Shown here: positions 4,904 through 49,976 of the stretch, piece after piece
Numbering within the stretch: position 1 is the stretch's first letter
Layout: the number at the start of each line of letters is the position of its first letter
Assembly (NCBI GenBank): GCA_020137815.1
Contig: CM035360.1
Coordinates: forward strand, 6,262,001 to 6,326,000
Direction: 5' to 3'
Length of the DNA stretch: 64,000 nucleotides
DNA from: Hormiphora californensis
Taxonomy: Eukaryota; Animalia; Ctenophora
Notes under the pieces: model-generated
Told to the model about the DNA's origin: nothing
The model's input: only the letters and a program-made list of their open reading frames with translations
Database searches by the model: none
Made by a program: the position numbers and the translations under genes

Positions 4904-5082
4904 AGACTGGTCTGAGAGGCGTTGATCGAACTATTATTTTGCCAGAAAACTGCTAATTACGATTGTTACATTTTGGGCATACCTACATTTAATGTTTCAT
5001 AATCATACACTATTAATTAATATTGCATGTACAAGTGAAGGCAGGAGTGAAATATAATTAGCTGGTAAATTATCAGCTACAT

Positions 5083-9054: not shown

Positions 9055-10050
9055 CTAGCCTCTAAAAAACTTCTCAGTGCTATCCGTCAGTTCATTGCCT
9101 TTGCGAAGGTTGTTCAGATTGGTAGTCATGACCACTTGATCACCTCCACCGGTATGTGAATACATGCTAGAATGTCGGAAAAACACCGGGGATTTGCGGG
9201 CCTTCTTCTTCAGCCTCAGACTTATCAGAACAAAGTCCCTGAAGCTGGAAATTGTGAAGAAGTAGACCAGGGGGTTGCAGGTGCAATTCAGGAAGGGCGT
9301 GTAGATGGCCACTTTTACAAACCACAGCAGGTTCCCCGGGATGACCTTGAGCATGATGAGACCGTAAGGGAGGAAGGAGATCATGAAGATCAGGGAGATT
9401 AGAATCACCATGACAACGCTCTGTTTCTGGAGACCCCGGGCCGTGTGCACAAAGTAGAGCAGCCACACTGTCCCAATATTGATAAGGAGGAAGGGTCCAA
9501 AGACGAGGGAGGCGGAGAGAATGGGTTTCAGCCAGGTGTCCAGGGCTTCCACGGATCCTTTGTTGCACCGCATCATGACCGGCGAGTAGCTGACATCCAC
9601 GCCCACGATAAGGTAGGGAACCACGGTGAAGAGACTCAGTAACCAGATAGAAGCTGCCACGACGTATCCACACTTCCTGGTCCGGGTTAGAGCTCGTAGT
9701 GGACAGAGCAGACTGGTCAGTTTGGCCACGTTTATAGAGCAAAGCAGCCCAATACTGGTTGCGGTGGATATACTCTCGAGGTAGTTGGTAGCAATACACA
9801 GGAACCCTCCATATACCCATCCACCCGCCAGGGAGGTCCCTATAGTGGGTAGAATGGCCGTGATACCAGTTATCAGATCCGCTATGGCCAGGTTCGAGAT
9901 GAGGACCAGGGAGACTTTATCGAGTTTTAGGGCACGGAACACCACCGCAGCAAGGAGGACGGTTAGGTTGCCAGTGACAGAGATAATACCCGTGGTGGTG
10001 CTCCAAAGGAAGACGGAGTATCGCTCCACCCCTGAGATGTTGTAGGACAT
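9055..10050 (-). CDS. Class A (rhodopsin-like) orphan GPCR, intronless
   Basis: 331 aa, 7 TM; GN in TM1, LAIADL in TM2, WVYGGFLC, FLP in TM6, CNPLVY in TM7. DRY is replaced by AKL. Confidence 0.92.
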   Translation of the reverse strand: MSYNISGVERYSVFLWSTTTGIISVTGNLTVLLAAVVFRALKLDKVSLVLISNLAIADLITGITAILPTIGTSLAGGWVYGGFLCIATNYLESISTATSIGLLCSINVAKLTSLLCPLRALTRTRKCGYVVAASIWLLSLFTVVPYLIVGVDVSYSPVMMRCNKGSVEALDTWLKPILSASLVFGPFLLINIGTVWLLYFVHTARGLQKQSVVMVILISLIFMISFLPYGLIMLKVIPGNLLWFVKVAIYTPFLNCTCNPLVYFFTISSFRDFVLISLRLKKKARKSPVFFRHSSMYSHTGGGDQVVMTTNLNNLRKGNELTDSTEKFFRG

Positions 10051-12636
10051 GATTGTATAACTGTTAGAGGAAGAGAGTGGGATTAGTAAAAGAGATGATC
10101 AGTTTACTGCAATACTGTCAAACTAAACCAGCAGAACTAATTAAACTCTTTAGAGCTTATCGAAGGGTGTTTAAAATATATAGTTATACAGTATCTCATC
10201 TTGCATTTACTGCAAATTATTCATATCAAGCGCTAGGAAGTGCCTCAGGAGAGCATTTAATTTGTTCAAAGTAGAACTCATTTACTCGACGGCGTTGATA
10301 TAGTGTATTATATTTTAGAAGGAAAGGCCACAGCATCTCAGTAGCCGCTCCCATGCCTCAGTCTAATATATGTGTCTAATAAAGGGAGTACAACAAAGAT
10401 ATGCCTGGCAATTTCTGTACTGCTATACACTGTCGGAGCTCCAATGAAGGTGGATTGTGGGATGGGAAGGAAATAAAAATGAAACACAATGTAATTGTAT
10501 CACAAAAGTTAAAAGTAACAAGTAGGGCCGAGTAGATTAAAGTAATAAAAGTATATTACAATGCATTGCATAAGCACTCATGTGAGACATTGGTCGTTAG
10601 TGCAAGTAGACAGTTATATATGCTACTACAACCAAAAGGTGGTTGAAGCAAAAAGAGATGAGATTGATATTCTTAAGATGAAATGTCTACTGTGGTGGTA
10701 AGAGTAAAACGCTATATGTCTCAGTACTATACTGATCATACTACGAGCATGTTTCGTTCGCATTATTATAACATTATAACCATCTGCATTCGACAAGGTA
10801 ATTCCCATAAAGGTGACAAATCAAAATATGCAAAATCGACGCAAGTAGACATTACATACAATACAATATATACGAATAAGGAAGATAGAGCGATCGTAAA
10901 AAGCTTGATCATATCGGAATGTTGAGCCTTGATGGATATTTTGAGGCTTTAGAAAACCTAAAAATATAAATTCAAGCAGTATTTTACACAGACTGACATA
11001 TACAGACTACAGTTATGCATAACACGAGACAAATATGTAAACACGAGACTCTAGCTCACTACTGACTATACCCAATTTACACAATTGGATTCCATTGGAA
11101 TATCAAGTTAGTTGAATTGTGTAGTACACTCTCTACGACCTACTGTCAGGCCAATGCTCTGACAGAAGACCTACGTAAATAGATAGGATCACTAAATTAC
11201 TTAACCATATTTTAAATGACGTCAAAACTCAAAACAAAGACTGAACATCATACAAAGTTGAAACACAGCATGTTATACCTATGATTATACCGATGTAGAC
11301 GTTTTTCATGAGGCCGTGCAGAGCGAGAAAGAATTTTGAAAATTATAGTTAGTCAGAAGGTAAGTAAGAAAAGCCAAACATTACAGAATGTATGTTAAAT
11401 TGATTGACTCGTTTGTATCTGTTTGCATCTTTCTTTCATCAAATCAGAGATCGATCCGTTCTAGAACCTGTAAGAAACTAAAATAAGATATAGGTAGCTA
11501 TCAGATATATTCAAATCTCAATATCGTATCGGTTTAGCTTGTGAGGTGCTTTTATCGTCTCCCAATGGGGAGAGTTGTAAAATAACACGCAGCGGGCTCT
11601 CAATATATGTGCATTAACTCATTGAAGGCGTGCGTCTTCCCGTCTCCCAAACTACCCCGCTATATAGAAGTTATACAGGCTGACTCATCTGAACATATAA
11701 CCATGTGTGTTATGTATTATGAAATAATAATGTTGACAATGGTTTATAGTGTGTGATTTAAAACATTGTACGCCGTCCCGGCTAGTTGTGGTTACAAGAA
11801 ACAGCTGTGGTATATGCATTGCCTAATGAAAAGCTTCCTAGACACATGTCTTGTACAAGAGGCCAAGAGAGTGGTATATTTGCAAATCATATACATGTGT
11901 TTATGCAGTTTCATATATAAGTGGTTAGGGAAGGGCACATTGCACAGCTTACTGAGGAAGCTCTTAAATAACCATGATCCACGAAGAGTACCATCCTGCT
12001 ATGATCCATTGAACTTATGAGTTATGCACGTAAAATCGTGGACTAATTTGAAATTTTAGGGAGGGGTGCGGTTTATCGTCCCCAAAGGGTTAAGGCTTGC
12101 ATAATTTATAAACTGGGTATGAGCACATGTTAGAAAATCTAAGACTTGAGGAAAGCCTCTTGGATGGTAAACCACTGTCAGAGCATTGGCCTGAGAACTG
12201 TGGTCAGAGCATAAGATATCAGAAAATGCTTGCTATGAAAACTCAGATAACTAACTTCCATGGAAACCTGACATAAAGTAATAGGCCGAAAGTACAATAT
12301 TCCATGGGGTAGAGTATTAAGGAAGAATGTGTCTCTTTGAGTGACGTGCATCTGACAGTCTGGCATACCTGCTAATGTAGCACAACAGCTGTGAACATGA
12401 AAGGTCCATCCTTACTTTTATATAGTACCGCACTAAGACCTCACCCACATTTGAAAGACACACAAAGAGCACATTTCAAAGAGCGATGACAGAGTTCTGA
12501 TATTTATATCACGTCACTGTATCATTTTACTGAACCACTACCTTACTGTATCGTTATCACGAAACACCTTGCTTCCTCATGCACGTGCCGATTGGGTGCG
12601 GTCAATTAAAATTAGTGAATCGAGATGTTGTAAGTG

Positions 12637-19256: not shown

Positions 19257-20496
19257 CTACTGCATGGTTGACTTGATGATAGCTGTGATTCGGCCAGTGC
19301 CTCCAAGTTCGTCCAATGTATAGGCCTGACTCCTATCCAAGGTGCCCCTCCTCAGCTGTAACGCTATGTTTGGGGGGATGGCCGTACCACACAACACCAG
19401 TCTAGTCTTATAGTAAGCCTGCTTAATGAACTTGGTGTAACTCGCTATGGAGAGGTAGTAGAGGAAAGCATTTCCCATGCTATTCAGGTTTATGATAAAC
19501 ACGGTGAACCGGTAGTAGTGTTGTAGTGGAGCTGACTTGGAGACATCAAAGACAAGCGACAGGACAAAGAATATACCATGGGGAACGAAGGATAGGAAAA
19601 ACAAGGTGGAGATTAGGAGAAGGGTGAGGACACTTTGTTTCTGGAGTCCTCGTGATTTGTAAAGTAGTCCGAGAAGCCACACAGTGGTTACGGTTACAAC
19701 GACCATTGGAAGGAAGATGAGGGTTGACGCGTAGAGAGGGTCCAACCAGCCATCTACTTCTGGAATCGCCACACTATCACAACGGTAAGGGAGGTGTTTA
19801 AAGGAGGCTGATCGGTGAAGTGCTAGACTGGGCAGGACCACTAGGATAATAGGTGTCATCCAGGCAACTCCCGCTAACCAGTAGCCGGTCCTCTTGCTCC
19901 TGTTTAGGGCTCGAAGGGGGCTCCTCATTCGGAGTAGTTTGCTGACATTTAGCATACAGAGGAGGACGATGGAGGTGACGAGGGTGATCGTCTCAAGAAA
20001 GTTGGTGGTAGTACAGAGGAGGGAGCCGTAGATCCATTGTTCAGTTGCTATAGAACCTGTCGTTGGCAGGATAACTGTACCTGGAAGAAATGGTATTTAG
20101 ATATTGATATTCAGGGTAATCACAAAGATGTATTTGTATTGTTCATGTGCGGGAGAGTATGAAAATGACAAAACAGGTATTTATATGGAATAATATATAC
20201 TTACATGAGAAGACAAGGTCAGCTACTGCAATGTTGAGAATCAGGATAACAGAGACTTTGTCCAATTTTATAGCGTTGAACTTTAGCGATAATACCAGGA
20301 TAAAGGTGTTGCCCAACAACCCAATGACACCTGGAAAACCAATCAGTTCAATAGTATGCTAATGTGATCCAAGCTAAAATCAGTTGGAATTAAAGCAATT
20401 TATATCACGCTATAAAAACTTCATACCTGTAAATAGTGACCAACCAAGAAGAGCAAACTTCTCCGGGCCGTTCTCCAAAGTTATCACATCCGCCAT
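19257..20496 (-). CDS. Class A orphan GPCR, 3 exons, paralog of 9055-10050
   Basis: Exons 20496-20427 (MADVITLENGPEKFALLGWSLFT), ~20330-20204 (GVIGLLGNT...IKLDKVSVILILNIAVADL) and 20080-19257 (WIYGSLLC...LNVSKL...GLQKQSV...NAFLYY). Shares the KLDKVS and RGLQKQSV motifs with the first GPCR. Confidence 0.88.
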
Positions 20497-22005: not shown

Positions 22006-27077
<5,072 letters not shown>

Positions 27078-27385: not shown

Positions 27386-28985
27386 TCAGTCGTCACAGAG
27401 TCCACAGGTCTTTCGGCAATACAGCTCAGCAACGTCAGCCCACCTACAGAAATCCGGAATACAGTTGAAAGCCTCGTCTTCACAGTCAGGACCAGGAGTG
27501 GGAGCAGGAGTGGGAGCAGGAGTGGGGGCAGGAGTGGGAGCAGGAGTGGGACCGGGAGTGGGGCTAGGAGTGGGACCAGGAGTGGGAGCAGGAGTGGGAG
27601 CAGGAGTGGGATCAGGAGTGGGATCAGGAGTGGGGCTAGGAGTGGGAGCAGGAGTGGGGCACATGTGCTCGTGTCGGCAGATTCCATCAGAACACCTCAC
27701 GGTTCCAGAGGGACAGTCACCGCCATCATCGTCACAAAGTCCACAGGTCTTTCGGCAATACTCAGCGGCAACTTTGGGCCAACTACAGAAATCCTTACAG
27801 TTGGTAGCCTTGTCCCGACAATCATGATTGGGATCGGGAGAAGGACCATCGTTCTCAGTAGGTCGGTAGGGGGTTGCAGCGTCGGGGTTGCTGTCACTCT
27901 TTCCAGTTTTGGAGAGGATAGGGTAGCTGGAGTATTCGAAGAGACCACAGTTGCTGTATCCTCGAGTGAACTTGATGAAACCGTTATCTCCCCAGGTGGA
28001 TCCCCAGGAGTTCTTTACCAGAACAAACTTGGAGGTGTAACCCACAGCGGTGACAGCGTGGTTGGGTAGTCCTTGACAAGTGGTGTCCTTGATGATTCCT
28101 CTTCGGTACTGCTGTAAGTAGCTAGTAGCCTGGAATGCAACGTTAAGAGCACCATCAACAAGAGCCTGGATGTTGGAGGACTCACCACTGGGGACATCCC
28201 TGTAGCCGGTGATCTTGGCAGAGACCATGGAGTCGGCCTTGCCGCTTGCCTTGCAAGAGCGTGCATCGGTAGCCTGATAGACATAGTTGGCAGTGGAAGC
28301 CAGTCGGCCACCATTCTTCTTGGAGTATTCGTAACAGTCACTAGGCCATCCACCGTTGCATCCATCTCGGTCACTGGGTAAGTAGGAAGAATATGACACA
28401 CTCATAAATCATAATACACTCATGAGCCAGTCATGAGACAAACGGACACGTTCTTCCTGCTTACCGGTTAATGTAGACACAGTCGAGGTACTCCTGCTCG
28501 GCGAAGTTCCTCAGAACTCCAGAGGCAATCTGGTATCGGGTCTCCAGACCTCCGACGGCTCCGAAGGTCCAACAAGATCCACAAGATCCCTGGTTCTTGA
28601 CCTCGGTAACTCCACCAAGGTTGGTCCAAAGGACTTTCTCGGGGGCGGCGAATCCACTGTTCTTCAGAGCAGGGGCGTTGGGGGCCTTGTTGGTGATGTT
28701 GAGTCCAAGGTACTGCTGCTTCTCAGCCTCAGTCATGGAAGAGAAGAAGTTGATTCCAAAGACGGCGGTGTCACTGTTCTCGTTGTAGTTGACAACCTCC
28801 TCAGCGCTCTTTCGGAACAGCCTGAATCTCATCCTATCCTCAGAGCTGGCATAGTTGAGTCCCTCAGAGGACTTGAAGGCAGTGTAGAGCTGAAGGGTTT
28901 CCTTGCTGCTCTTCAAGATTATCCTGAGAGCATCCTCGGCAGCGAAGACTGCTCCAAACAGACAGAGAACTACAATAACTTTCAT
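27386..28985 (-). CDS. Secreted papain-family (C1A) cysteine protease, paralog A: signal + I29 propeptide + catalytic domain + ShKT + 4-Cys module + PT/PA linker + ShKT
   Basis: Exons 28985-28465 and 28373-27386 total 1509 nt (502 aa). [12 protein letters not shown] and KNSWG catalytic motifs; CRKTCGLC twice. Confidence 0.93.
28377..28465. mobile_element. 89-bp TIR element forming a spliceosomal intron (28374-28464) in protease A
   Basis: 15-bp TIRs GGTAAGTAGGAAGAA / TTCTTCCTGCTTACC (1 mismatch), flanked by 8-bp direct repeats ggtcactg (28369-28376) and ggttaatg (28466-28473). Confidence 0.85.
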
Positions 28986-29395
28986 GTTGAATGATTTGGT
29001 GTTAGAGGATATTCTCACTTACATTTTATACTAGGTTGCCCTTCATAGCTGCCAGATGTTTCTAAGTAAATTTGGCTATTGTTCATTTTGTTAGCAAGTG
29101 ACTATTAAATTTAAATGCTAGCTTGTCACGACTCCCTTTGTTCTTGGCGTCTCTTTCATCTCCCTCCTGTCATTTTACCATTAAGTATGGGATTTTTTGT
29201 ACCCAGCTTGTTTGTGTGATAAACAGTTTATCTACTGGATATTTCCCGGATGATCGTTTTAGCTCGTGTGCTAAAAATATCATATATAATACAGGGTTTA
29301 GAAATATCGGATTTGAAATGGTAACTCGCGTGTGGTCAAAATCGCGTAACAGTTCACGTCAGTGAATGGTAACTGCACCTTCATCTAACCAATTA

Positions 29396-29535
29396 CAGTC
29401 GGATCCCAATTTACTGGGATGCTCGGGAGAAGGGATTTGTCCGGTAAATCTGGGTCCTCGGTATATCGGAGTGAAAAACCCTTAATTTCCTAAGACGGGT
29501 GAAGTTTATCCTCCCGGTAAATCGGGGTCCGACTG
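29396..29535. mobile_element. TA-flanked MITE between the divergent promoters of proteases A and B
   Basis: TA|CAGTCGGATCCCAATTTAC...GTAAATCGGGGTCCGACTG|TA. Confidence 0.85.
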
Positions 29536-29817
29536 TAATTTATGTTTTGGCCCAGATATAACTATAAGCTCAGACCGGCTCAGAGAATTTCATTTTCAAT
29601 ACTAAATAGTATTATTTTTCTCCATGAATGCCCCGTCTAGAAGTTAAACAGATCCAGACGTGAATAACCCGTTTATCACATGAACAAGGGCCTTAAAAAT
29701 CCCACACAATGGTAATTGACAGGAGGGGGATGAAAGAGAAGCCAAGAACAAAGGGAGTTGGGGCAAACTAGCACGTACTTAGATCTAATCTTCACTTGCT
29801 AACAAAATCCACAAAAT

Positions 29818-29916
29818 GAACAATAGCACAATTTACGTAGTAACATCTGGCAGCTATGAAGAACCAACTAGTATAAAAAGTGAGTGAAAATATCCTCCAA
29901 CACCAAATCATTCAAC
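29818..29916 (+). promoter_or_regulatory. Conserved TATA promoter of the protease paralogs
   Basis: GAACAATAG, ACATCTGGCAGCT (E-box) and TATAAAA (29872) lie ~45 bp before the ATG. Near-identical blocks precede A, C, D and the 63.7-kb copy. Confidence 0.7.
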
Positions 29917-31155
29917 ATGAAAGTTATTGCAGTTCTCTGTCTATTTGGAGCAGTCTTCGCTGCCGAGGATGCTCTCAGGATAATCCTGAAGAGCAACAAG
30001 GAAACCCTCCAGCTCTACACTGCCTTCAAGTCCTCCGAGGGACTCAACTATGCCAGCTCTGAGGATAGGATGAGATTCAGGCTGTTCCGAAAGAGCGCTG
30101 AGGAGGTTGTCAACTACAACGAGAACAGTGACACCGCCGTCTTTGGACTCAACTTCTTCTCTTCCATGACTGAGGCTGAGAAGCAGCAGTACCTTGGACT
30201 CAACATCACCAACAAGGCCCCCAACGCCCCTGCCCTAAAGAACAGTGGATTCGCCGCCCCAGAGAAGGTCCTTTGGACCAACTTTGGTGGAGTTACCGAG
30301 GTCAAGAATCAGGGATCTTGTGGATCTTGTTGGACCTTCGGAGCCGTCGGAGGTCTGGAGACCCGATACCAGATTGCCTCTGGAGTTCTGAGAAACTTCG
30401 CCGAGCAGGAGTACCTCGACTGTGTCTACGAAAACCGAGACGGATGTGACGGTGGATGGCCTAGTAACTGTTACGACTACTCCAAGAAGAACGGTGGCCG
30501 ACTGGCTTCCACTGCCAACTATGGCTACCAGGCTACTGATGGCTCCTGCAAGGGAAGCAGCAAGGCTGACTCCATGGTCTCTGCCAAGATAACCGGCCAC
30601 AGGGATGTCCCTTATGGCGAGTCCTCCAACATCCAGGCTCTTGTTGATGGCGCTCTTGCTGTTGCCGTCGAGGTTACCAACTACTTCCAGCAGTACCGAA
30701 GAGGAATCATGAAGGACACATTCTGCACTGGACGAGTTAACCACGCTGTCACCACCGTCGGATACACCTCCAAGTTTGTTCTAGTAAAGAACTCCTGGGG
30801 ATCCAGCTGGGGAGATAACGGTTTCATCAAGTTCACTCGAGGATACAGCAACTGTGGTCTCTTCGAATACTCCAGCTACCCTATCCTCTCCAAAACTGGA
30901 AAGAGTGACAGCAACCCCGATGCTGCCACCCCCTACCGACCTTCTGAGAACGATGATGGTCCTGCTCCCAATCCCAACTGTAAGGACAGGGCTAGCAATT
31001 GTGTTATGGAGTTCTGTCAGTGGCCCGAAATTTCTGTGCCGTGGTGTCAAAAGACCTGTGGACTCTGTGACGATGATGATGATGATGGCGGTGACTGTCC
31101 CTCTGGAACTGTGAGGTGCTCTGATGGAGTCTGCCGACACGAGCACATGTGTTAG
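29917..31155 (+). CDS. Secreted C1A cysteine protease, paralog B: + ShKT + 4-Cys module, intronless
   Basis: ATG at 29917 ([15 protein letters not shown] signal); catalytic C/H/N motifs intact; CQKTCGLC; ends [19 protein letters not shown]. Confidence 0.95.
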   Translation: MKVIAVLCLFGAVFAAEDALRIILKSNKETLQLYTAFKSSEGLNYASSEDRMRFRLFRKSAEEVVNYNENSDTAVFGLNFFSSMTEAEKQQYLGLNITNKAPNAPALKNSGFAAPEKVLWTNFGGVTEVKNQGSCGSCWTFGAVGGLETRYQIASGVLRNFAEQEYLDCVYENRDGCDGGWPSNCYDYSKKNGGRLASTANYGYQATDGSCKGSSKADSMVSAKITGHRDVPYGESSNIQALVDGALAVAVEVTNYFQQYRRGIMKDTFCTGRVNHAVTTVGYTSKFVLVKNSWGSSWGDNGFIKFTRGYSNCGLFEYSSYPILSKTGKSDSNPDAATPYRPSENDDGPAPNPNCKDRASNCVMEFCQWPEISVPWCQKTCGLCDDDDDDGGDCPSGTVRCSDGVCRHEHMC

Positions 31156-31497
31156 ATATTATTGATACTGTACTTGTTAACAACACATGATAATAATTTG
31201 AGTTTTTATTTGTTTTCCCGGTAAACACACGTGGAATAAGGTCCTAGTTACCATTGGTTACATGGTTACATACTATGTAACCATGTAAACAATACATAGT
31301 TACAGTTTTGAAACTGATGCCAGGTTCCAGGTTTCCCATCCAGCTGTTATGTCAAAACAGACCTATCACAGTATGAATATTTCACAAGGACGTCCCTCCC
31401 ACCCATTTAGTCTCCCCACTGTCTATCATCGTGCAGAAACCATAGGGTCTACGTAAGACGGATATATCGTAACTGCATGCTCTTCTTGTAGTACCAC

Positions 31498-31849
31498 TGT
31501 TGTACTATGTGTAACCCTTTGGGTGGATGTCACATGAGCCGGCCTCTCAGACCGATCACGTGACTCTCCCCAATCAGGGCGATGCCTAGCTGAGGTGCTA
31601 TTCGAGATGGTTTACCATGGATTCAATTATCTCCAGGAAACCACCTCGAGTTAGTAACCCAAAGCCGGCTTACTGCAGGTCACGTGTCCATTAGGGACCA
31701 CGTGGTTGGAGAGTATAAAGGGTACAGAGTTTTTGTGTTCGGCACTCTTCTGGAGATATCGATTTATTCAGTTCGTTGCTAATTCATTAAGACCAGAAAA
31801 CCAACGTGTTTATCTTTGTCTAACCCGGTTACAGGATTACTATACCACA
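31498..31849 (+). mobile_element. Possible solo LTR
   Basis: TGTTGTA...TACCACA termini and an internal TATAAAGG at ~31714. No matching TSD or PBS seen. Confidence 0.3.
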
Positions 31850-33180
31850 AGAAACCGTGAGGGTGACCCGGCAATCGGCATACCCCGGGGTAAACCAGTC
31901 GGCTCCAGTGACACACTACCAAATCACCACAATCACTCACGGCCCCCACTAGCGGTGCTGGTATTACTAAGTGATTGATTTGATTTGATTTGATTTGGCC
32001 TTCGTGCGCAGTAGGGTCCCCAACAAGGGTTCACGCTCACGGCAACCAGTTTCCAGCCTTAACAAATTAAATCAAATCAAATCAACCGGGGGTGGGATCA
32101 AAACACCCATATATTCAACAAAAAGGTGCACAAAAAACGAGAAGGGGGGGTTGAAAACTTCAAAAGATCGGGCTTTAAGAGCAGCTATTTACATTTTCAC
32201 CGGACCCCTCGTACACCCACCCACCGTAGCATGGGTGTCACATAGTTAAATCTTGATTCTCCATCCCCCCTCCCCCGAATCAACATCATTTTAATATTGA
32301 TGGACAGAGCTTTGACTTCAAACTTTGCCATGATCATGCTATTGACCCACTTTTCAAGAAGAAAAAACCTATGTTCCGGAGATAATTTTTCAAACATGAC
32401 AAAATTATAATTTCAGACAATTTGGTGGGAATTACCAGAATTTGGTGCCGTTTCATTGGGTAGTTGAGGACTGAGGAGGTATACACTTAATCAAAGCGAT
32501 TCTCTTACCTCTACCAATGTGAATGAGACTAACAGTGCTGCTTGCAGTCAAAATACGGTAACGCAAAATACAGTAAGGAGACGCGCACGGTGCATAACGC
32601 GCGGCAAAAAGTTCATTTGTCAGCACGTACTAGCGCCCTGATTGGTCACGGTTGCGCGTCGTCTTACTGTATCTTCGTTTTCCATTACCGTTTTCCCACT
32701 ACAAGCGACCGTGTTATCGCGATTAACTATTCATACGGTTACCCCCTTTCTCTCTTCGGCAGCTTCTCTTTGGCTGTTGGAAAGTGATGCCAATCGGTGT
32801 TGGGGTTGGTGAATTTTCAGCTCACGTTCTCTTACCTTTAGCTCAGGTCGCTTCACAACCTTTGTGCACATTGTACTGGCAAAGAAGGGATAGCTTCGTA
32901 ACCTCTAACGAGCAGCCTTCTTAGTCAGGGTTTGCTCACACTGACTACGACGTCATTTTAAAATCATTTCGTCACTCAGCTATATTAGCTAGTTCAATTA
33001 GTTCATTTTACAGCCCAGATATTTGGCCATAATAGCACTTAAATTTAATAGACACTTGCTAACAAAATCCAGGAAAGGAACAATAGCACAATTTACTTAG
33101 TAACATCTGGCGGCTATGAAGGGCGGTCGACCTAGTATAAAAAGTGAGCGAGAATATTTTCCAACACCAAATCATTCAAC

Positions 33181-34665
33181 ATGAAAATTATTGCAGTTCT
33201 CTGTCTGTTTGGAGCAGTCTTCGCTGCCGAGGATGCTCTCAGGATAATCTTAAAGAGCAGCAAGCAAACCCTTCAGCTCTACTCCGCCTTCAAGTCCTCC
33301 GAGGGACTCAACTATGCCAGCTCTGAGGATAGGATGAGGTTCAGGCTGTTCCGAAAGAGCGCTGAGGAGGTTGTCAACTATAACGAGAACAGTGACACCG
33401 CCGTCTTTGGACTCAACTTCTTCTCTTCCATGACTGAGGCTGAGAAGAAGCAGTACCTTGGACTTAACATCACCAACAAGGCCCCCAACGCCCCTGCTCT
33501 GAAGCACAGTGGATTCACCGCCCCCGAGAAGGTCCTTTGGACCAACCTTGGTGGAGTTACCGAGGTCAAGAACCAGGGAAACTGTGGATCTTGTTGGACC
33601 TTCGGAGCCGTTGGAGGTCTAGAGACCCGATACCAGATTGCCTCTGGAGTTCTGAGGAACTTCGCCGAGCAAGAGTATCTGGACTGTGTCTACAATGATC
33701 GATGGGGATGCGACGGTGGATGGCCTAGTGACTGTTATAAATACTCCAAAAAGAACGGAGGTCGACTGGCTTCCACTGCCAACTATGTCTACCGCGGTCA
33801 TGATGGCCCCTGTAAGGGAAGCAGCAAGGCCGACTCCATGGTCTCTGCCAAGATCACCGGCTACAGGGATGTCCCCAGTGGCGAGTCCTCCAACATCCAG
33901 GCTCTTGTTGGTGGTGCTCTTAACGTTGCATTCCAGGCTACCAGCTATTTACAGCAGTACCAAAGAGGAATCATCAGGGACACCACTTGCCAGGGACCTC
34001 CCAACCACGCTGTCACCGCCGTCGGATACACCTCCAAGTTTGTTCTAGTAAAGAACTCCTGGGGATCCAGCTGGGGAGATAACGGTTTCGTCAAGTTCAC
34101 TCGAGGATACAGCAACTGTGGTCTCTTTGAATACTCCAGCTACCCTACCCTCTCCAAAACTGGAAAGAGCGACAGCAACCCCGATGCTGCCACCCCCTAC
34201 CGACCTACTGAGAACGATGGTCCTTCTCCCGATCCCAATCCTGATTGTCAGGACAAGGCTACCAACTGTAAGGATTTCTGTAGCTGGCCCACAATTGCCG
34301 AGGAGTATTGCCGAAAGACCTGTGGACTTTGTGACGATGATGGAGATGACTGTCCCTCTGGAACCGTGAGGTGTTCAGATGGAATCTGCCGACACGAGCA
34401 CATGTGCCCCACTCCTGATCCCACTCCTAGCCCCACTCCCGTTCCTACTCCTGATCCCACGCCTGCTCCCACTCCTGCCCCCACTCCTGCTCCCACTCCT
34501 GCTCCCACTCCTGCTCCCACTCCTGCTCCCACTCCTGCTCCCACTCCTGGTCCTGACTGTGAAGACGAGGCTTTCAACTGTATTCCAGATTTCTGTAGAT
34601 GGGCCGACGTTGCTGAGCTGTATTGCCGAAAAACCTGTGGACTCTGTGACGATTATATGAGTTAA
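33181..34665 (+). CDS. Secreted C1A cysteine protease, paralog C: + ShKT + 4-Cys + (PTPA)n + ShKT, intronless
   Basis: 494-aa ORF; [17 protein letters not shown]; two CRKTCGLC motifs. Confidence 0.95.
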
Positions 34666-35126
34666 CAACACATGATAACGATTTGAGTTTTATTTTTTGT
34701 CATGGAAAACCAGACTTGGGGAGTCATAATGAACCCTTTATTATAATTCAGTGTTGACAAATGTTTTTAACTGACATTCAAAACAGTAGGACCCCGATTT
34801 ACTGAGTCTCGATTTATCGGGAGGATAAACTTCCCCCGATATAGGAAATCGACAGTATTTGATCCCGATTATATATACCGGGTACCCCGATTTAACAGGT
34901 AAAACCCTTTCCGCCGAGCATCCCGGTAAATCGGGGTCCGACTGTACACACGAAGGTCGTGAGCCGGCCTGAACTAGGCGTAACTCACTCTAAAAAGTAA
35001 CACCTCCTCAACCACTCAATGAAAATGCACCAAATTCTGGGGTTTCCCACCAAATTGTCTGAAAATTATAATTCTGTTCTCATATTTGAAAAATTATCAC
35101 CGGAACCTTGGTTTTGAGATCAGTTT

Positions 35127-35369
35127 TTGGGTACGGTGTCCCCTCTCTCCCGAATTAAACGTAGCGTGCGAGACAACATGAGACAGAGACAGCATAGGAC
35201 GATAGAAGAAAGAGGGGATAAAGTCCAATTTTTAAGAAAGCGAACTGGGGGCACGCGAATTCAATTTTTGAATTGAAATTGGTAGTGTGCAACGTGTGAT
35301 GTGCGTGAAATGCTCTGATTTGCGTGCAAACGGTTCGCTTAATTAAAAATCGCACTTTATCATACCCAA
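35127..35369. mobile_element. Mutator-like non-autonomous element with 9-bp TSD
   Basis: GATCAGTTT|TTGGGTA...TACCCAA|GATCAGTTT. It is inserted into an older repeat (34990-35420) whose inverted homolog lies at ~32340-32490. Confidence 0.7.
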
Positions 35370-36380
35370 GATCAGTTTTAGGTGTTTATGAAGAAGTTCT
35401 TTTCTTGAAAAGTAGGTCAGGTATTTTCAATATCATATTATTATCTTCAAAGATCTGGCCATGAAAATTATTTAAGAGGTCTTGAACTTTGAAGTCGGAA
35501 GTTTCGTAAAAACATGTTATAGCACAGCTTCTACTGTGCTAGATTGAACCTGGTTTGAAACAATGAACTGCAAATTCATCCCTTCGGAAAAGGATGAACT
35601 TTGAACACGCCAGCTCTGCAATATGGCATATTATTGTGTTTGTATCAGAGGTAAAGGGAAGGTATAGCCTCACTGTGCCGCTCAGGCTGCATATTACGGA
35701 TCCCTGATAGAACTGCTAGGGAGTAGAGCCAGAATCCAGATAATTCAATCTGTGCATTGACAGATTGTGTGCTTTCTTCACATGCATGAGACATCACGTG
35801 CGACGTGATCAGTAGAAAACACCGCCTATTCTCTGAAAAAAACACAATTCATTATGTGCAGATGGAATTATCTGACTCAATTCCCTGTGGTCCGGCTCTT
35901 TCACCGAAATGAGGAAGAAAAGTGAAGACACCTTTGACCCAGTGACCCTTTTTGCTTCAAAAAAAAGTCAAAATTAATCTACCATTGAAACTGTACGTCA
36001 GTTGAGAGAGTGTATCAACATTATAACTTGCATCGTTTTTGTTTACGCTCCAGTTACAATATAAGAAACTGAATCCAGGTTCCAGATGGGAGATTCTTGA
36101 TGAACCACGATGCGAGTGATCTGCGATCACATGACACAAGTTTCCATGTGAAACGTTTAGAGATTAGAGCTGCGTGTAATGTGTGTGTGGCTTGGTAACG
36201 AAATTACCCCTACCTTGCTGGCACGCTAAAAGCTGCTTTACTACCGCGATGTCATAGTTATGAGGGGAAATTTCATTACCAAGTGTGTTGCTCCAATCTC
36301 TAACTGGGCTTACCGAGACCAAACAAATAAAAACTCAAATCAGTATCATGTGTTGTTAACAAGTACAGTATCAATAATAT

Positions 36381-37622
36381 CTAACACATGTGCTCGTGTC
36401 GGCAGACTCCATCAGAGCACCTCACGGTTCCAGAGGGACAGTCACCGCCATCATCATCATCGTCACAGAGTCCACAGGTCTTTTGACAATACTTGTTAGC
36501 AATGTCGGCCCACCTACAGAAATCCTGAGTACAGTTGATAGCCTTGTCCTCACAGTCGGGATCGGGAACGGGAGCGGGACCGTCATCGTTCTCAGAAGGT
36601 CGGTATTTGGTGGCAGCGTCGGGGTTGCTGTCAGCCTTTCCAGTTTTGGAGAGGGTAGGGTAGCTGGAGTATCCAAAGAGACCACAGTTGCTGTATCCTC
36701 GAGTGAATTTGACGAAACCGTTATCTCCCCAGCTGGATCCCCAGGAGTTCTTCACCAGAACAAACTTGGAGGTGTATCCGACGGCGGTGACAGCGTGGTT
36801 GGGTCGTCCACTGCAGGTACTGTCCCTGATGATTCCTCCTCGGTACTGCTGGAAGTAGTTGGTAACCTCGAAGGCAACAGCAAGAGCACCATCAACAAGA
36901 GCCTGGATGTTGTTGGACTCACCACTGGGGACATCGTTGTAGCCGGTGATCTTGGCAGAGACCATGGAGTCGTCCTTGCTGCTTCCCTTGCAGGAGCCAT
37001 CAGTAGCCTGGTAGACATAGTCGGAAGTGGAAGCCAGTCGGCCACCGTTCTTCTTGGAGTAGTCGTAACAGTCACTAGGCCATCCACCTTTGCATCCGTC
37101 TCGCCTATCGTAGACACAGTCCAGGTACTCCTGCTCGGCGAAGTTCCTCAGAACTCCAGAGGCAGCCTGGTATCGGGTCTCCAGACCTCCGACAGCTCCA
37201 AAGGTCCAGCAAGATCCACAAGATCCCTGGTTCTTGACGGGGGTGACAGCTCCAGTGTTGGTCCACAACACCTTGTGAGGGGCGGAGAGGCTAGCTGTGG
37301 GAGGGGCAGGAGCGTTGGGGAGATGATTGGTGATGTTGAGTCCAAGGTACTGCTGCTTCTCAGCCTCAGTCATGGAAGAGAAGAAGTTGAGTCCAAAGAC
37401 GGCGGTGTCACTGTTCTCGTTGTAGTTGACAACCTCCTCAGCACTCTTTCGGAACAGCCTGAACCTCATCCTATCCTCAGAGCTGGCATAGTTGAGTCCC
37501 TCGGAGGACTTGAAGGCAGTGTAGAGCTGGAGGGTTTCCTTGTTGCTCTTCAGGATTCCCCTGAGAGCATCCTCGGCAGCGAAGACTGCTCCAAACAGAC
37601 AGAGAACTGCAATAACTTTCAT
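36381..37622 (-). CDS. Secreted C1A cysteine protease, paralog D: + ShKT + 4-Cys module, intronless
   Basis: ATG at 37622; catalytic motifs intact; NKYCQKTCGLC; terminal CRHEHMC. Confidence 0.95.
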   Translation of the reverse strand: MKVIAVLCLFGAVFAAEDALRGILKSNKETLQLYTAFKSSEGLNYASSEDRMRFRLFRKSAEEVVNYNENSDTAVFGLNFFSSMTEAEKQQYLGLNITNHLPNAPAPPTASLSAPHKVLWTNTGAVTPVKNQGSCGSCWTFGAVGGLETRYQAASGVLRNFAEQEYLDCVYDRRDGCKGGWPSDCYDYSKKNGGRLASTSDYVYQATDGSCKGSSKDDSMVSAKITGYNDVPSGESNNIQALVDGALAVAFEVTNYFQQYRGGIIRDSTCSGRPNHAVTAVGYTSKFVLVKNSWGSSWGDNGFVKFTRGYSNCGLFGYSSYPTLSKTGKADSNPDAATKYRPSENDDGPAPVPDPDCEDKAINCTQDFCRWADIANKYCQKTCGLCDDDDDGGDCPSGTVRCSDGVCRHEHMC

Positions 37623-38504
37623 GTTGAATGATTTGGTGTTGGAGGATATTCTCACCTACTTTTTATACTAGTTCGTCTTTCATAGCTGCCAGATGTTACT
37701 ACGTAAATTGCCCTTTTGTTCATCCCTTTCGTGAATTTTGTTAGCAAGTGAAGATTAGATCTAAGTGCTAGTTTGCCCCAACGCCCTTTGTTCTTGGAGT
37801 CTCTTTTATCTCCCTCCTGTCATTTTACCATTGTGTGGGATTTTTAAGGCCCTTGTTTATGTGATAAACGGGTTATTCAAGTCTAAACTGGATCTTTTTA
37901 TGTCTATACGGGGCAGTTATGTAGAAAAATAATATTTCAAAAACAGTCTCTAAGCATAGTAGCTGCCTTCTGGGCTGAAAAATAAACTAGTTGAACTAGC
38001 TAATATAGCAGCGCGACGAAAAGATTGTCAAATGACGTCAAAGATCAACAATGTGAGCTAAAATCGAACCTCAATTCACCAGGCTGCTCGTTATAATAGT
38101 AAGAGGGTTAGAAGGGTAAAAGTACGTAATATTTGTGAAGAAAATTGGTAACCCCCAGAATCTAGATATCGAGAGAATTTTAACTGTCCGGAACATTGAA
38201 CATATATAGCGTATTTTAATCTTTGTCAAATATTTTCATCCAAGTCTATTTCGCTAGATCCAATTTGTCACACGTCTTCCACAAGTTAGTGTGGCCAATG
38301 CTTCTCAAATGAAGTGCTAACTAGAATACTAATTAAATCGCATAAACCCTCCCAGAACAATACCATCCACTATCCAGTGTGAGATCATAAAATCCCTCCC
38401 TAAATCCCTCATTTAGTCTACCACCTGTTACTAGCTGTAATTCCTGGATCCCCCACTATAAAATATGGGCATCCCAAACACCTCCCTCAACTTATTCCAC
38501 AAAC

Positions 38505-39635
38505 ATGAAGTTTTTCACTATCATCTGTGTTCTTGGAGTTGCCCTCGGTCACGAGGCGCCCCTAAAGGAGATCCTCAAGTCAACCGCAGAGACTCTCAAG
38601 CTTTACAAGAGCTTCAAAGCCGAGGAGGGACTCCGGTTCGGGACTGAGGATAGGATGAGGTTCAGGCTGTTCCGAAAGAGCGCTGAGGCGGTTGTCAACT
38701 ACAACGAGAACAGTGACAACACCGTCTTTGGACTCAACTTCTTCTCTTCCATGACTGAGGCTGAGAAGCAGCAGTACCTTGGACTCAACATCACCAATCA
38801 TCTCCCCAACGCTCCTGCCCCTCCCACAGCTAGCCTCTCCGCCCCTCACAAGGTGTTGTGGACCAACACTGGAGCTGTCACCCCCGTCAAGAACCAGGGA
38901 TCTTGTGGATCTTGCTGGACCTTTGGAGCTGTCGGAGGTCTGGAGACCCGATACCAGGCTGCCTCTGGAGTTCTGAGGAACTTCGCCGAGCAGGAGTACC
39001 TGGACTGTGTCTACGAGGGAAGTAGGAACGGATGCAATGGTGGATGGCCCGATGATGCCTACAAGTATAGTGCGAAAAATGGAGGTCGCCTCGCTGCCAC
39101 CTCAACCTACTACTACAAGGGCCGGGACGGTAATTGTCGAGCTGACAGGAACAAAGATGCCATGATCTCCGCTAAGATTGTGGGAGCTAGAGGCGCTGGT
39201 CGTGGTGAGCAGGCTAACATTGCCGCCATCGCAGAGGGTGCCCTTGCTGTCGCTTTTGAGGTTACCAACTACTTCCAGCAGTATAGCAGGGGAGTTATCA
39301 AGGACACTACCTGTGGGGGACGACCCAACCATGCAGTAACTGCTGTCGGTTACACCCCTCTCTTTGTGCTGGTCAAGAACTCATGGGGTGGAAGATGGGG
39401 AGACTACGGGTTTGTAAAGTATGCCCGAAATCACCACAACTGTGGGCTGTTTGATTACTCAAGTTACCCCCTGCTTACAATGACTGGCAGAAGCGATAGT
39501 AGCCCTGACCAGGCTAGTATGTACAGGCCCAAGGAGGATGATAAGCCCGCTCCTCCGCCCAACCCTGATGGTGAGTGTGCCAGTGGAACCGTGAGATGTC
39601 CTGATGGAGTTTGCAGACACGAACACATGTGTTAA
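38505..39635 (+). CDS. Secreted C1A cysteine protease, paralog E (most divergent): 4-Cys module only, no ShKT
   Basis: 376-aa ORF; signal MKFFTIICVLGVALG; TATAAAA at 38457; ends CASGTVRCPDGVCRHEHMC. Confidence 0.95.
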   Translation: MKFFTIICVLGVALGHEAPLKEILKSTAETLKLYKSFKAEEGLRFGTEDRMRFRLFRKSAEAVVNYNENSDNTVFGLNFFSSMTEAEKQQYLGLNITNHLPNAPAPPTASLSAPHKVLWTNTGAVTPVKNQGSCGSCWTFGAVGGLETRYQAASGVLRNFAEQEYLDCVYEGSRNGCNGGWPDDAYKYSAKNGGRLAATSTYYYKGRDGNCRADRNKDAMISAKIVGARGAGRGEQANIAAIAEGALAVAFEVTNYFQQYSRGVIKDTTCGGRPNHAVTAVGYTPLFVLVKNSWGGRWGDYGFVKYARNHHNCGLFDYSSYPLLTMTGRSDSSPDQASMYRPKEDDKPAPPPNPDGECASGTVRCPDGVCRHEHMC

Positions 39636-41032: not shown

Positions 41033-44000
41033 AATTCCAGTCCATCGTAGGGGTGGGGTCCGGTCAGATCAATACTTGCACCCTGTGTCAGTCCACTTCC
41101 AATCCCACTATCGGCTGCCGGCACCGGGTCCTGAAGGTGTTGGAAAGAATTAAACGGGGAATGAAATCTAGATTACCATCTACATTACCATGGATTATTT
41201 TCACTAAAATTGGAGCAGGGAGCTGAGTAACTAGTTTTACTGTGGTTGTTATGGTTGCTATGGAGCATGTTTCCATAGCAACCAACTCACCTCCTCCTCC
41301 TCACTAGGACTCACATCCTCCACCACCACCTCCTCATCGCCCTCACCCTCTTCCTCCACTATGATTGGCTGTACGTTGATCACGTGATGTGGACTGTGAG
41401 GTGGCAGCTCGTCTGGAACGGAGTGGGTGTCATGGTGACGAAGATGCTGCTCCTCAGGAGTCATGGTGTCACCATGGTGACCATCATTGGGATTTGTAGT
41501 GGCATCACCATTCAACAGAGGTTGTGTGCCAATATTATCATCATCACTAGGTAACTGCTCGGTAGGTTCAGTAGTTGGAGCGTTTTCAGTGGGATCGCGT
41601 TGTGATTCATCCACTGGTTTCTGAAATAAGTGAATAAGTGAGGATTATAATTTATATATATGTCAATTAAACCTCGATTTTAGAGATAACCTGGGAGAGC
41701 TCGAACCTGAACACTTTGTGTTTCATCCCCATTTGTAGCAGTTATCCGTTTCCATGACAACTTCATCCTCAACTTTGTCATTTGTGGTAGATTCACTGTT
41801 AGTTTTATCCACTGCTGCACTATCAACGGCCTTGGATTCCTTTTCTTCCCGCTGTTCCTTATTGTGAACTAATGTTAGAAACTTGACACAATTATGACAT
41901 TCAAATTGAGGGAAAACAGTCGTGCCTGAATCTCAGGTCACGGCTATTTACCCCTGAGACCTCAGGGCCGCCGGGCCGGAGTAAATAGCCGTAACCTAAA
42001 CCTGAGGTTCTGTCACGACTGTTTTCCCCAATATTGGCAGTACCCTTCAATCTGTGCTTTAGTAAAACTACAAATAAACTTCCTCTTTTTAAAATGGCCT
42101 TGAAGTGCAGTGCAGCTTTTCATGTAACATATTAGGCACACACACCCACACAATATCTTTATTCTCTCACATTCTGAAAACCCCGTTCAAACCCGACTGC
42201 AGTATATATGCTTGTACACCACTGCAGCTCTCACCTTCAATATCTCATCCAAAAGGAGGATATTACTATCGACATTGAACGTAGCAACGGGCCTTGGTTC
42301 ACCCTGTTCTGTGCTACTGGCCTGCAGCACGCTACTACAACCTCCACTTGTACTGTTCTCACGACTCAGACTTCCTAACTCGGCTAGACGCTTATCCATT
42401 TTCTCCTAGTTGTGACAGACACACATAGACATAATGTTGGGTTGAATGGGCTGCAATCTGTATGACAAACTCACTGCACAACTCTATGCTCACCCACGCT
42501 TGCAGTTCACGGTGCTTCTATCTTTGTATGCTATCTCATACTACATTGACAGGCAAACAGGCTAGTGCTCGGGATCCCTTCAACGATATGATCAAAAAAC
42601 AACTTGAGGACAACGTCCTATAATTTCTTAACCCATTCAGCACTGCCAGCATTAGTCTTGCAAGATTGTTGTGTTTGGTTAATTATGAAAGATGCGATTG
42701 AATCATGCCGTGCTAAAAATAAAATATTGACAAGCATAAAATGAAGGCTGAAGGTGTCAGTTTATAATGTAAATGGAATCAATACGACAGTGCTATAACA
42801 CAATATGTATAACACTACCTCGAGCTAGAACTACTGCAGTAGACAACAAGGGGCAGTTAAGGGTACGCTAACCAAAATTTTTTTTCGAGTGCAGGGCAAT
42901 CTCTCACCGTAGGGTTGTAGGCCATGCCAAGGAGACCTCAAATATGCAATTTGAGCTCTCAAGTCGAATTCATATTTTTGCTACAGCTGCTTGAAAAATG
43001 TCCTGTAAATACGTTTTTGGCATCTCAAAAAAATTTTTTTAAAGATAGGAGCATGAAAATTTAGGGATTTGAAGAGGACATGAAGGTGAATAACCACAAA
43101 AAATTTTTTCGCAATCCGAGCTGATTTCCGGTCCTGAGATGGATTTCTTTTTTTCCACTTTAACGCCCTATTTGGCAAACTTCCGAAAACATGTGAAAGC
43201 TGTAAATTGGTGAAAAGTTGCGTCTAACGATTATCTAAGTGGCCATAAATTTTGGGCGCGTCCTTATTTGAGATAAGCTGTACAGAGTTTTTTTTGTGAA
43301 AGCCGTCAGTTCAGAAATAAATAAATTCTCTGTATCTCAAAAACGACTGATCGTAGAGACCTGAGACTATGCTTAAACGATTCAGAAGGTCCGATTTTGG
43401 GGGGGTCTTCTGAGAGACATTTTGCTCCTACTTCAACCGTTTTTGCTGTAATTGCGAAAAACAAATTCTATGAAAAGGGCAAAAGTTAAACTCCAATATT
43501 CTGTAATTGGGAAATTTTAGCTAAGAAAGGACCGAAACTATGGGAAAATGTGTTGCAAGCTAATTCATTCACTATTTGGTCCATATGGGTCCCTATAATC
43601 ACCAAAAACAAAATCACAAAAAATCCACGATGGCGAAGATGGGTTTTTGTTTTTCGCAATTACAGCAAAAACGGTTGAAGTAGGAGCAAAATGTCTCTCA
43701 GAAGACCCCCCCAAAATCGGACCTTCTGAATCGTTTAAGCATAGTCTCAGGTCTCTACGATCAGTCGTTTTTGAGATACAGAGAATTTATTTATTTCTGA
43801 ACTGACGGCTTTCACAAAAAAAACTCTGTACAGCTTATCTCAAATAAGGACGCGCCCAAAATTTATGGCCACTTAGATAATCGTTAGACGCAACTTTTCA
43901 CCAATTTACAGCTTTCACATGTTTTCGGAAGTTTGCCAAATAGGGCGTTAAAGTGGAAAAAAAGAAATCCATCTCAGGACCGGAAATCAGCTCGGATTGC

Positions 44001-47000
44001 GAAAAAATTTTTTGTGGTTATTCACCTTCATGTCCTCTTCAAATCCCTAAATTTTCATGCTCCTATCTTTAAAAAAATTTTTTTGAGATGCCAAAAACGT
44101 ATTTACAGGACATTTTTCAAGCAGCTGTAGCAAAAATATGAATTCGACTTGAGAGCTCAAATTGCATATTTGAGGTCTCCTTGGCATGGCCTACAACCCT
44201 ACGGTGAGAGATTGCCCTGCACTCGAAAAAAAATTTTGGTTAGCGTACCCTTAACATACCTTTAATTTCCCCTTGAATGCCGTCAAGGCTCGGATGGTAC
44301 TAAACTTTCCAGCCAGCTTACCCCACCACTTCTTTCCTGACTGAAAAGTAATCAGTGTTTTATAAACACCATACACCAAAGCTTTACAAAAGACTAGGCT
44401 ACGGCAATGGATTGTTATATCAATGATAACTCACCGATCCCTTGCCAAGTTTTATCAGCATTTCAGATAGATATTCATCATCAAGCATAGCTGCTATACT
44501 GTGGGCGTTCAAACCTTCCTCATTGCCAATATCAGGGTCAGCTCCTAACAGGGGATCGGACATTATTATTTTGTTTCAGGGTTTTACTACCATAGTAAAA
44601 ATGTAAGTAGGTCAAGTATAATGAACTTTTTGAGCTAGTCAAGGAGATGAAGAGGGAACTATGTACCTGCGAACAGTAGGTACTCCACCACTCTGTAATG
44701 ACCGTGAAACACAGCTTGCATCAGGGCAGTCCACCTGGAAGTATAAGATAAACTAAATTCCTGAACTACTTGATACACTCAGCTGAGCTCAGAACTCTCA
44801 AATCAAAAGCAAATCACCGTTAATTATTTTGCAAAACTTAATTCCTGAACTATTCAATACACTAGGTCGACTCTCTGCTCAGGCAGATATATCTATATTT
44901 TGTAAAACCAGACCCTTAGACTCACTGGTTCTTATCACATCGAGAGTTGATATCAATCCCATCCTCGTCTAGCAGCCACTTGATGATATCCAACTGGCCG
45001 ATCACTGCTGCAAACATTAGTGGTGTACCCCCACCTTTCAGTCGGCTATCCGGGGATTCCAGCTGCCCTACCAGCTCCTGGATCGAGAGTTAGGAATTGT
45101 AATCCTTGTTTTCAGTGAGGGAATATATAATGCGGCTAACAATCAACTACTCCTTATTCTATACTCTTGAACAAGACTAATCATCACTCTCTCGACAGAT
45201 TGAAATTATTTGAATTGTTCATACTTTCTTTTTATTCTAAAAATCACGGACACAGTGTCAGGCGAATCAAGAAATTATAAAGATTGGATGGATCAAATGA
45301 AAGACCTACTTTTACTATGTCGAGATCCCCATCCTTTATTGCCCCTGAGATCGCCTCACTGCTATCAGGCAGTGCTTCCGCTATTAATGTCATTAGTGCA
45401 CCCTTCTGATCTCCCTCTACTGCCCTTAGCACCTACAATGATTTGTTACTCAATAAATAATGATGAACTGCTGATAAAGCATTACAGAGAGAAGCTTAAT
45501 AGTCTAACCGTTAGGATGAATGTTACGCTTAATTTATATGGCTATGAGCGTTATATGTGAAGTGCAATAGAACATCTAATTTGATTAAAAACTAAATTGC
45601 CAGCACCAAAAACCAACAAGACTATTATTTAGATAGATTTTGGATAATTATGATTTAGGGAAATTATCCCAGCTGGACTGACGTGAAGATCGAACTCTCG
45701 TGTACACTCACTACACTCTCGTGAGTAAGAATAATTATAGGGTAAACGGATTTAGGGTAAAAGACTTTTACTAAAAGTCCAGTAGGCGGTTATCCCGAGA
45801 GGGGCGGTGGAGTGCAATCATCGTCGGCAATATTTACATAAAGTTAGTATAATTGCCCTAGTGTCGATGTCCAGATCAACCAAAATATGTGTACAAAACG
45901 GGATTGGAAACTAAACGTAGAAGTGAGGTAAATAATTAGTGTATCTCCATTCAGGAAGTGCAACATGGAATGAACTGAAATCTCATTGAAACAGTTCTAC
46001 TATGCAAGTGTGGTAGGTGGAACTCACCACTTCTAATCAGACATGAAATAGCTAGCTCATTACGTGGGAGTTGAGAAAGTTGAGCTATGTAAATTATCTG
46101 GATACTGTGCGATAAAAAGAGAGTACAAACATAAATATCACACATAACTAGGTCAAGCATTCTACGATATATGTGAATATTACTAGATCTCTGTAAATAG
46201 TGAGTGGTCTAGTCAAGGTGAAGATACACGTAGTAACTAGTAAAATATAAATAGGCGCCAATTATAAAACTTTGGCCGTCTCTTTATCTACATGTTTACC
46301 AAGATTTCATGCATATGGACATGGAAAATTAGAGAAAGAAATGACATTGCACGTGCAAAATTGCTTGTCTGGAACGATAATGGATCGATATGAAAAATCA
46401 AAAAGAGATAATAGGTTCGAAACTTATGACAATCACATAAAATGATTGACAGTGATCCAGACAGGGCAGTTAGGACAGACAGATCTGGAACGATTGGATG
46501 AGTAAGAACCAAAAGAAACAGGGAGAGATACTGAGATAGAAACGATATCTATATAGAAACGAGAGATGAGAGAGAAAGATAGAAAGATGAGAGAGATTGG
46601 CAGAGATATAATAATAATATAGAAAGAAAGATAGATGGAGAGAAAGAAAAAGAAAGAGAGAATGGCATTATCAATAACTAATCTTTAGTTTTAGTTTCGG
46701 CATAATGACCTCCCTCCCTATTCAAGTGAGTCGTAATGGACCAGTGACCTGATCATTGGGAAATTGTGTATGTGTGAGAGAACGGCCATTAGCGATCAAT
46801 GGAGAGAGGAAGAGACAATGAAGAGGAGAGAGGGAACACCAGAGATGAAGGAGAGATGATCATGGTGATGAGGGAGAGGAAAAAATCGGGGGAAAGAAAA
46901 AATATGAATGAATGGGAGAGATAACTATGTGATAAGGTGGTATACTAACAGGAAGTTGGGATAGATTCAAGATCAAACAGTATTATATAATGACTAAGAG

Positions 47001-49857: not shown

Positions 49858-49976
49858 TAGAAATGGTATATGTCAAAGAGGAGGTGAACCTTTGATAACA
49901 GCATCTGACTTTATCACGAATTCTCTTTTTCTCGTTTTCTCTATGCACATTTGTCACATGTTTGTGTTTAAAACCA

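Follow-up and report, generated by a model that had tools for sequence, protein, structure and literature searches.

Huff et al. (2016) are said to have described introners of the Aureococcus anophagefferens type as elements with terminal inverted repeats (TIRs) that insert with an 8-nt duplication. Most documented cases of intron gain from DNA transposons come from algae, dinoflagellates and fungi, and the available portions of a 2022 survey, which took in Pleurobrachia bachei, two Beroe and Mnemiopsis leidyi, report introners in only two animal groups and score M. leidyi at 0 introners (PMC9860276). A 2025 survey adds a sea urchin; under its definition an introner family needs four or more similar introns whose genes belong to different paralogy groups, and its genome list, as available, contains none of five ctenophore genus names (Gozashti et al., PMC12130899). 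Merlin occurs once in the classification table of that survey, as a terminus match on an element left 'Unknown' (PMC12130899). The passages on introns and repeats in a ctenophore genome paper make no mention of such elements (PMC8527503), and the accessible parts of the literature that we searched for ctenophore, Mnemiopsis or Merlin-class introners yielded none.

How does the ctenophore locus analyzed here compare with these systems? It lies in a 64-kb window (the whole stretch of Hormiphora californensis DNA under analysis) and is a cluster of five papain-family protease genes, paralogs A to E, which encode I29 propeptide, Peptidase_C1 and ShK-like domains. One of the five, A, is interrupted by an insert that we consider to be probably a single, established intron derived from a Merlin-like MITE. 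The coding exons and paralogs are:

28465..28985, minus strand: paralog A coding exon 1, with the signal peptide, the I29 propeptide and the first part of Peptidase_C1 including the catalytic Cys
27386..28373, minus strand: paralog A coding exon 2, with the rest of Peptidase_C1, the ShK-like domains and a Pro-Thr repeat; 988 nt, open frame
29917..31155, plus strand: paralog B, intronless, empty site
33181..34665, plus strand: paralog C, intronless, empty site, domain layout as in A
36381..37622, minus strand: paralog D, intronless, empty site
38505..39635, plus strand: paralog E, intronless, with a loop one residue longer than in B-D

Paralogs B-E are each a single uninterrupted ORF without the element, and at the site of the insert A is longer than B, C and D by 97 nt, in keeping with the claim of a preliminary description that A alone carries an intron. 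The cluster as a whole (27386-39635) is intronless except for A and includes inverted gene pairs. Inverted arms at 29116-29175 and 29714-29773 were considered as a MITE and rejected, as they are the common upstream region of the head-to-head paralogs A and B. Pairwise divergence varies along the genes, with a dS between A and B of 0.09 upstream and 0.26 downstream, and paralog D is like E in its propeptide and like A-C elsewhere; uneven divergence of this kind suggests gene conversion. A C-terminal Pro-Thr repeat linker and a second ShK-like domain are found in A (27480-27660) and in C, and both are missing from B, D and E. The best named protein relatives come from Bolinopsis microptera and Mnemiopsis leidyi (61-67% identity). 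The closest match to paralog C that the protein search returned was at 84%, with nothing nearer, so this search gave no record of a spliced A protein.

Read on the minus strand, the interrupted site consists of CATTAACC (28473-28466), GGTAAGCAGGAAGAA (28465-28451), 59 nt, TTCTTCCTACTTACC (28391-28377) and CAGTGACC (28376-28369), an arrangement of repeats and inverted termini that the preliminary description had given and that proved exact when the coordinates were read again. The parts are (in G/GTAAGC and CAG/TGACC the slash marks a predicted splice junction):

28466..28473, minus strand: 5' copy of the 8-bp target-site duplication, CATTAACC, exonic
28377..28465, minus strand: 89-bp non-autonomous TIR element (MITE) with Merlin-like termini, its first G kept in the predicted mRNA
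28431..28465, minus strand: left arm of about 35 nt, with the donor G/GTAAGC and a CTCATGA motif; highly repeated elsewhere in the genome, as seen from read-contig depth and from loose ends at 28431/28434 and 28465/28467
28377..28391, minus strand: right 15-bp TIR, which is the pyrimidine tract of the predicted intron
28369..28376, minus strand: 3' copy of the duplication, CAG/TGACC, CAGTGACC, with the predicted acceptor inside

The two TIRs are identical at 14 of 15 positions; when the bases of the 105-nt stretch were shuffled 2000 times, no shuffle scored 14. In a sample of 3000 random 105-nt segments of the 64 kb, eight score at least 14; two of these are the element locus itself and the remainder are other repeats. 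Lengthening the match beyond 15 bp gives 17/21 when extended and 17/24 ungapped, and GGTAAG is present at both element ends. The excess of 97 nt in A equals 89 + 8, so that length by itself demands an 8-bp duplication. Between the flanks of the element there is identity at six of eight positions, which is the divergence of 2/8 reported earlier, and this is the sole good register among 2-12 (binomial p ~0.005). By eye, the right arm can be aligned with the left if a gap of some 15 nt is opened beyond base 15, and the same offset stem appears in the folded RNA. The element RNA folds as a hairpin in which the donor is paired with the pyrimidine tract (-34.4 kcal/mol, z -2.9). The converse history, in which A has kept an old intron that B-E have lost, has nothing beyond formal possibility in its favor and is extremely improbable in light of the TIRs, the 8 nt of excess length, the multi-copy terminus of the element (see below), and the further paralogs outside the window, known from loose ends of read contigs, that run through the position without insert. 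The TIRs, the 89 + 8 excess and these insert-free paralogs argue for gain rather than loss, as had been claimed.

Read contigs from X2, X3, X4 and X6 (four of the 22 runs of the organism, representing at most four samples from two studies) were mapped on 27900-29100. All four runs are presumed, at a guess, to be DNA, because contigs specific to A and to its paralogs have similar depth and because a similar repeat spike appears in every run. Summed depth over 28433-28473 is 192, 67, 87 and 108 times that of the locus-specific contig in the four runs, a depth ratio that is not a copy number. The loose ends at 28465/28467 lead into at least three other outer flanks, and those at 28431/28434 lead into other inner sequences with repeated CTCATGA motifs, one of them at least 252 nt long. 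A repeat family with the left end of the element is seen in 4/4 runs, and the transposon origin and multi-copy family put forward in the preliminary description are supported. In contrast to this high-copy left end, the right end has 1.5-2.1 times the locus depth at 90% identity, and the 89-bp form is at most low-copy. We infer that a family with long symmetric arms, the right arm having decayed in this copy, would account for both depth facts. The element is a MITE, or non-autonomous TIR transposon, by its TIRs, by its duplication relative to the empty site and by its dispersed copies, the dispersal being that of the 35-nt end and not of the full 89 bp. No second copy of the element was found in the 64-kb window by blastn and pattern scans, and an exact 22-nt element scan of JGI metagenome contigs gave 0 matches. 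Likewise, the TIR was found at up to two mismatches in 0 of 34 related loci, only two of which exceed 45% identity over most of the protein, both of them roughly transcript-sized.

Is the insertion still in progress, in a recently active family, as first suggested? This is not supported. The insert is present in 4/4 runs, X6 included, and no empty A allele was seen among the contigs listed; the right arm is decayed and close to single-copy, and the duplication copies have diverged. The contigs drop rare variants, and the paralog joints listed are exactly those of C, D and B, which is 3 of the 12 expected, so sensitivity to empty alleles is low. Listed contigs of X6 depart from the window sequence at 2 of 155 bases over the border of the insert and at 7 of 114 upstream. 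On the strength of its presence in all four runs, the difference at two of eight duplication positions and the decayed right arm, we read the insert as an allele that is already established and not as one in progress.

To which transposon superfamily does the element belong? Merlin elements have 5'-GG termini, duplications of 8-9 bp and TIRs of 24-462 bp, with intact ORFs of this superfamily reported from the ctenophores Pleurobrachia bachei and Beroe ovata (PMC8101967). The element in A has 5'-GG-3' termini, with GGT at its start, and an 8-bp duplication, the latter seen at one locus only; its TIRs match over 15 bp in this copy, and the ~35 nt common to copies suggest a longer family TIR whose right arm has decayed here. 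An 8-bp duplication would also suit hAT, but the (C/T)AG-type termini of that superfamily are absent. Most hAT termini begin like those of Ac/Ds, with some exceptions. Ac/Ds-type termini begin (C/T)AGGG (PMC3260210). Given the GG termini, the 8-bp duplication and the long arm, the element termini point to Merlin rather than to hAT or P, and the hAT/P-like autonomous partner envisaged in the preliminary description is less likely than a Merlin one. As the 91 translated stretches of the 64-kb window contain no transposase, DDE_Tnp_IS1595 included, we treat Merlin as a lead and not as a result.

The window contains other repeats and genes that we note in their own right. Three foldbacks were identified, at 42856-44255 (arms of 610 nt, 100%), 53741-54533 (arms of 317 nt, 96%, with an apparent 5-bp duplication ATGTT) and 2312-2897 (arms of 224 nt, 91%), together with a 915-bp element at 5082-5996 that has 28-nt inverted ends around a palindromic tandem array (5470-5850) and a non-LTR retrotransposon reverse transcriptase ORF at 54950-56503, plus strand (RVT_1, DUF6451). 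The plus strand also encodes a xanthine/uracil/ascorbate permease family gene with short GT-AG introns (76-1600), an MFS transporter ORF (3305-4903), a class III aminotransferase gene of at least seven exons (24275-27077) that ends about 300 nt from the stop codon of A, tail to tail, and an ORF without Pfam match for a Thr/Pro-rich membrane protein of 751 aa (49899-52154). On the minus strand are three long single-frame ORFs for rhodopsin-family 7TM receptors (9055-10098, 19257-20096 and 57955-59043) and ankyrin-repeat exons (47494-48566).

Two outcomes of splicing were considered for the insert in A:

28374..28464, minus strand: predicted 91-nt GT-AG intron, phase 2, by signals and frame; in-frame TAA at 28463-28461 if retained
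28401..28402, minus strand: second in-frame AG, giving a 64-nt intron and 511 aa, with a weaker pyrimidine tract

In-silico removal of 28464-28374 yields a 502-aa ORF that reads CVYINRDRDGC and has the catalytic-site motifs present in the alignment; retention leads to a stop after 174 aa. For comparison we used nine native introns from two neighboring genes of the window, each set of which restores an open frame. The candidate donor agrees with the U1 consensus at 7 of 9 positions (5-8 of 9 in the native introns), the pyrimidine fraction is 0.87 (native 0.47-0.87), and the length is 91 nt (native 95-910). In the spliced form the loop between C and GC would have 8 residues, a length shared by 6 of the 115 homologs, out of 120, that could be scored (range 5-10). 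Judged by these signals and by the reading frame, the insert is likely to leave the RNA as the predicted 91-nt intron. Three earlier claims hold for this predicted form: the donor lies within the TIR, as G/GTAAGC in the left arm; the acceptor lies in the second duplication copy, where the cut restores the frame; and the net gain to the mRNA is 6 nt. To these we add the second in-frame AG at 28401, the longer loop of paralog E, and the hypervariability across the paralogs of the two duplicated codons. Splicing mostly at the inner AG would insert nine more residues beside the active-site loop, and no other in-frame AG comes before it past the donor. However, the resulting intron would be shorter than all nine native introns and have a pyrimidine fraction of 0.60, and a loop of 17 residues would exceed the 5-10 seen in the 115 homologs. 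We regard its predominant use as very improbable.

Alternatively, the insert may be retained, or A silenced, in which case A would be a pseudogene of recent origin, cut short at 174 aa and buffered by four or more paralogs, with the AG in frame by chance. In simulated exonic insertions of the same geometry the first AG was in frame within 12 nt at 958 of 4889 sites (20%), so an in-frame AG is weak evidence when taken alone. Moreover, the hairpin spans both splice signals, and its pairing of donor with pyrimidine tract could hinder splicing. In all four runs a contig is continuous over the border of the element and exon 2, with no 91-nt skip listed. The contigs of X3 and X4 end near 29003, with no cover farther upstream; a variant site lies there, and so does a plausible start site, 27 nt behind a TATA box. 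If X3 or X4 were RNA, which is distinctly unlikely, the insert would be retained at near-exon depth. One-base deletions at 28428/28430 in the read contigs possibly come from other element copies and were not counted as support for an intron.

Against the pseudogene stand the splice signals, on par with those of the best native introns, and the coding sequence that follows them. Exon 2 is open, and changes private to A downstream of the insert comprise 11 synonymous and 6 replacement changes (omega 0.16, p 2e-4), the lowest omega among A-D; the same test gives 0.69 for B, 0.26 for C and 1.55 for D. The value for D reflects 4 synonymous and 22 replacement private changes. Upstream of the insert, A has only 2 synonymous and 2 replacement private changes. 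The coding sequence of A downstream of the insert thereby shows the mark of purifying selection, a signal that cannot be dated to the time after insertion and that gene conversion among paralogs can blur. No exonic indel of A is among the variants listed from the four runs, and the decay of the duplication and of the right arm suggests that there has been time enough for the frame to decay as well. The probability of no disabling change in A is at most 0.02 at the point estimate of its age and 0.11-0.43 at the low end of the age range, where the argument from the missing stop codon is therefore weak. Taking both sides together, we think a truncated or silenced A unlikely.

When did the acceptor arise? 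The acceptor G occurs only in the right duplication copy of paralog A: at this position the base is A in paralogs B, C and D and T in the left copy of paralog A; the AG may accordingly have been present in the target or have arisen later. In the second case the target would have lacked an acceptor at insertion, and a later single substitution in the 3' duplication copy would have rescued the allele by intronisation. Two steps are required whichever order of events is assumed. However, a late acceptor requires an unspliceable allele to persist until its rescue, and the site in C (AATGAT) shares more with the right copy (4/6) than with the left one (3/6), which means that the right copy may be ancestral. 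Provided that the insert is spliced, we hold out a modest, tentative chance for such a late rescue.

For the established, Merlin-like intron that we favor, we propose the following course. A non-autonomous member of a long-TIR family, mobilized probably by a transposase of the Merlin type, would have inserted in A and generated the 8-bp duplication. Its terminus is a strong predicted donor and the reverse complement of that terminus a pyrimidine tract, with the AG next to it in the duplicated target. The predicted cut restores the frame and leaves two extra residues in a loop that tolerates changes in length. Because it could be spliced, the allele would have survived; it would next have spread, with decay of the right arm and of the duplication coming afterwards.

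A more far-reaching proposal is that a Merlin-type MITE family, whose long TIR serves as a complete donor on one strand and as a pyrimidine tract on the other, makes introns genome-wide in this ctenophore, with about one-fifth of exonic insertions spliceable in frame. We consider this doubtful. If true, Ctenophora would gain its first introner family and Merlin its first link to introners, in an animal for which chromosome-scale resources exist, and one more phylum, and probably one more transposon superfamily, would join the animal sources of introns. As a single site, A would be a neat example of a known mechanism, transposon-made introns being known already. In either case filled and empty sites stand side by side in one cluster, and the insertion can be read base by base.

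Finally, the geometry of the insert in A would match that of an introner insertion, and the described systems each share a part of it. Introners of the Aureococcus anophagefferens type and classes 6, 8 and 10 of the Polarella glacialis ILEs have in common with A a TIR element, a duplication of 8 nt from which one splice site is recruited while the element brings the other, and the possibility of either orientation; however, according to the available text, in these Polarella classes the 3' site is brought by the element and the 5' site comes from a GHN6 duplication, whereas the element of A carries the donor, for a net gain of 6 nt (bioRxiv 10.1101/2020.10.14.339549). The Aureococcus-type and Polarella ILE families comprise hundreds of introns each, and the comb-jelly element one known intron, itself predicted (bioRxiv 10.1101/2020.10.14.339549). 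Chrysochromulina introners carry the 5' site and co-opt the acceptor, as in A, but have a 4-bp duplication and no TIRs, and those of Aureococcus sp. gain codons in frame from element plus duplication (+12 nt), as in A, but carry both sites; both cases are families, whereas A is one site in a ctenophore (PMC9860276). Merlin/IS1016 elements resemble that of A in their 5'-GG termini, the 8-bp duplication, the ~35-nt arm common to many copies and the known occurrence of imperfect TIRs, and they differ in that no transposase is tied to the termini of the A element and the matched TIR is only 15 bp (PMC8101967). Similarly, maize Ds (hAT) is, like the A element, non-autonomous, with TIRs, an 8-bp duplication and subterminal repeats, and, as predicted for A, is spliced from exons as an intron at single loci; its termini are C/TAGGGATGAAA (11 bp) and its insertions are mutant alleles held in stocks, whereas the insert in A is present in all the runs examined (PMC3260210).
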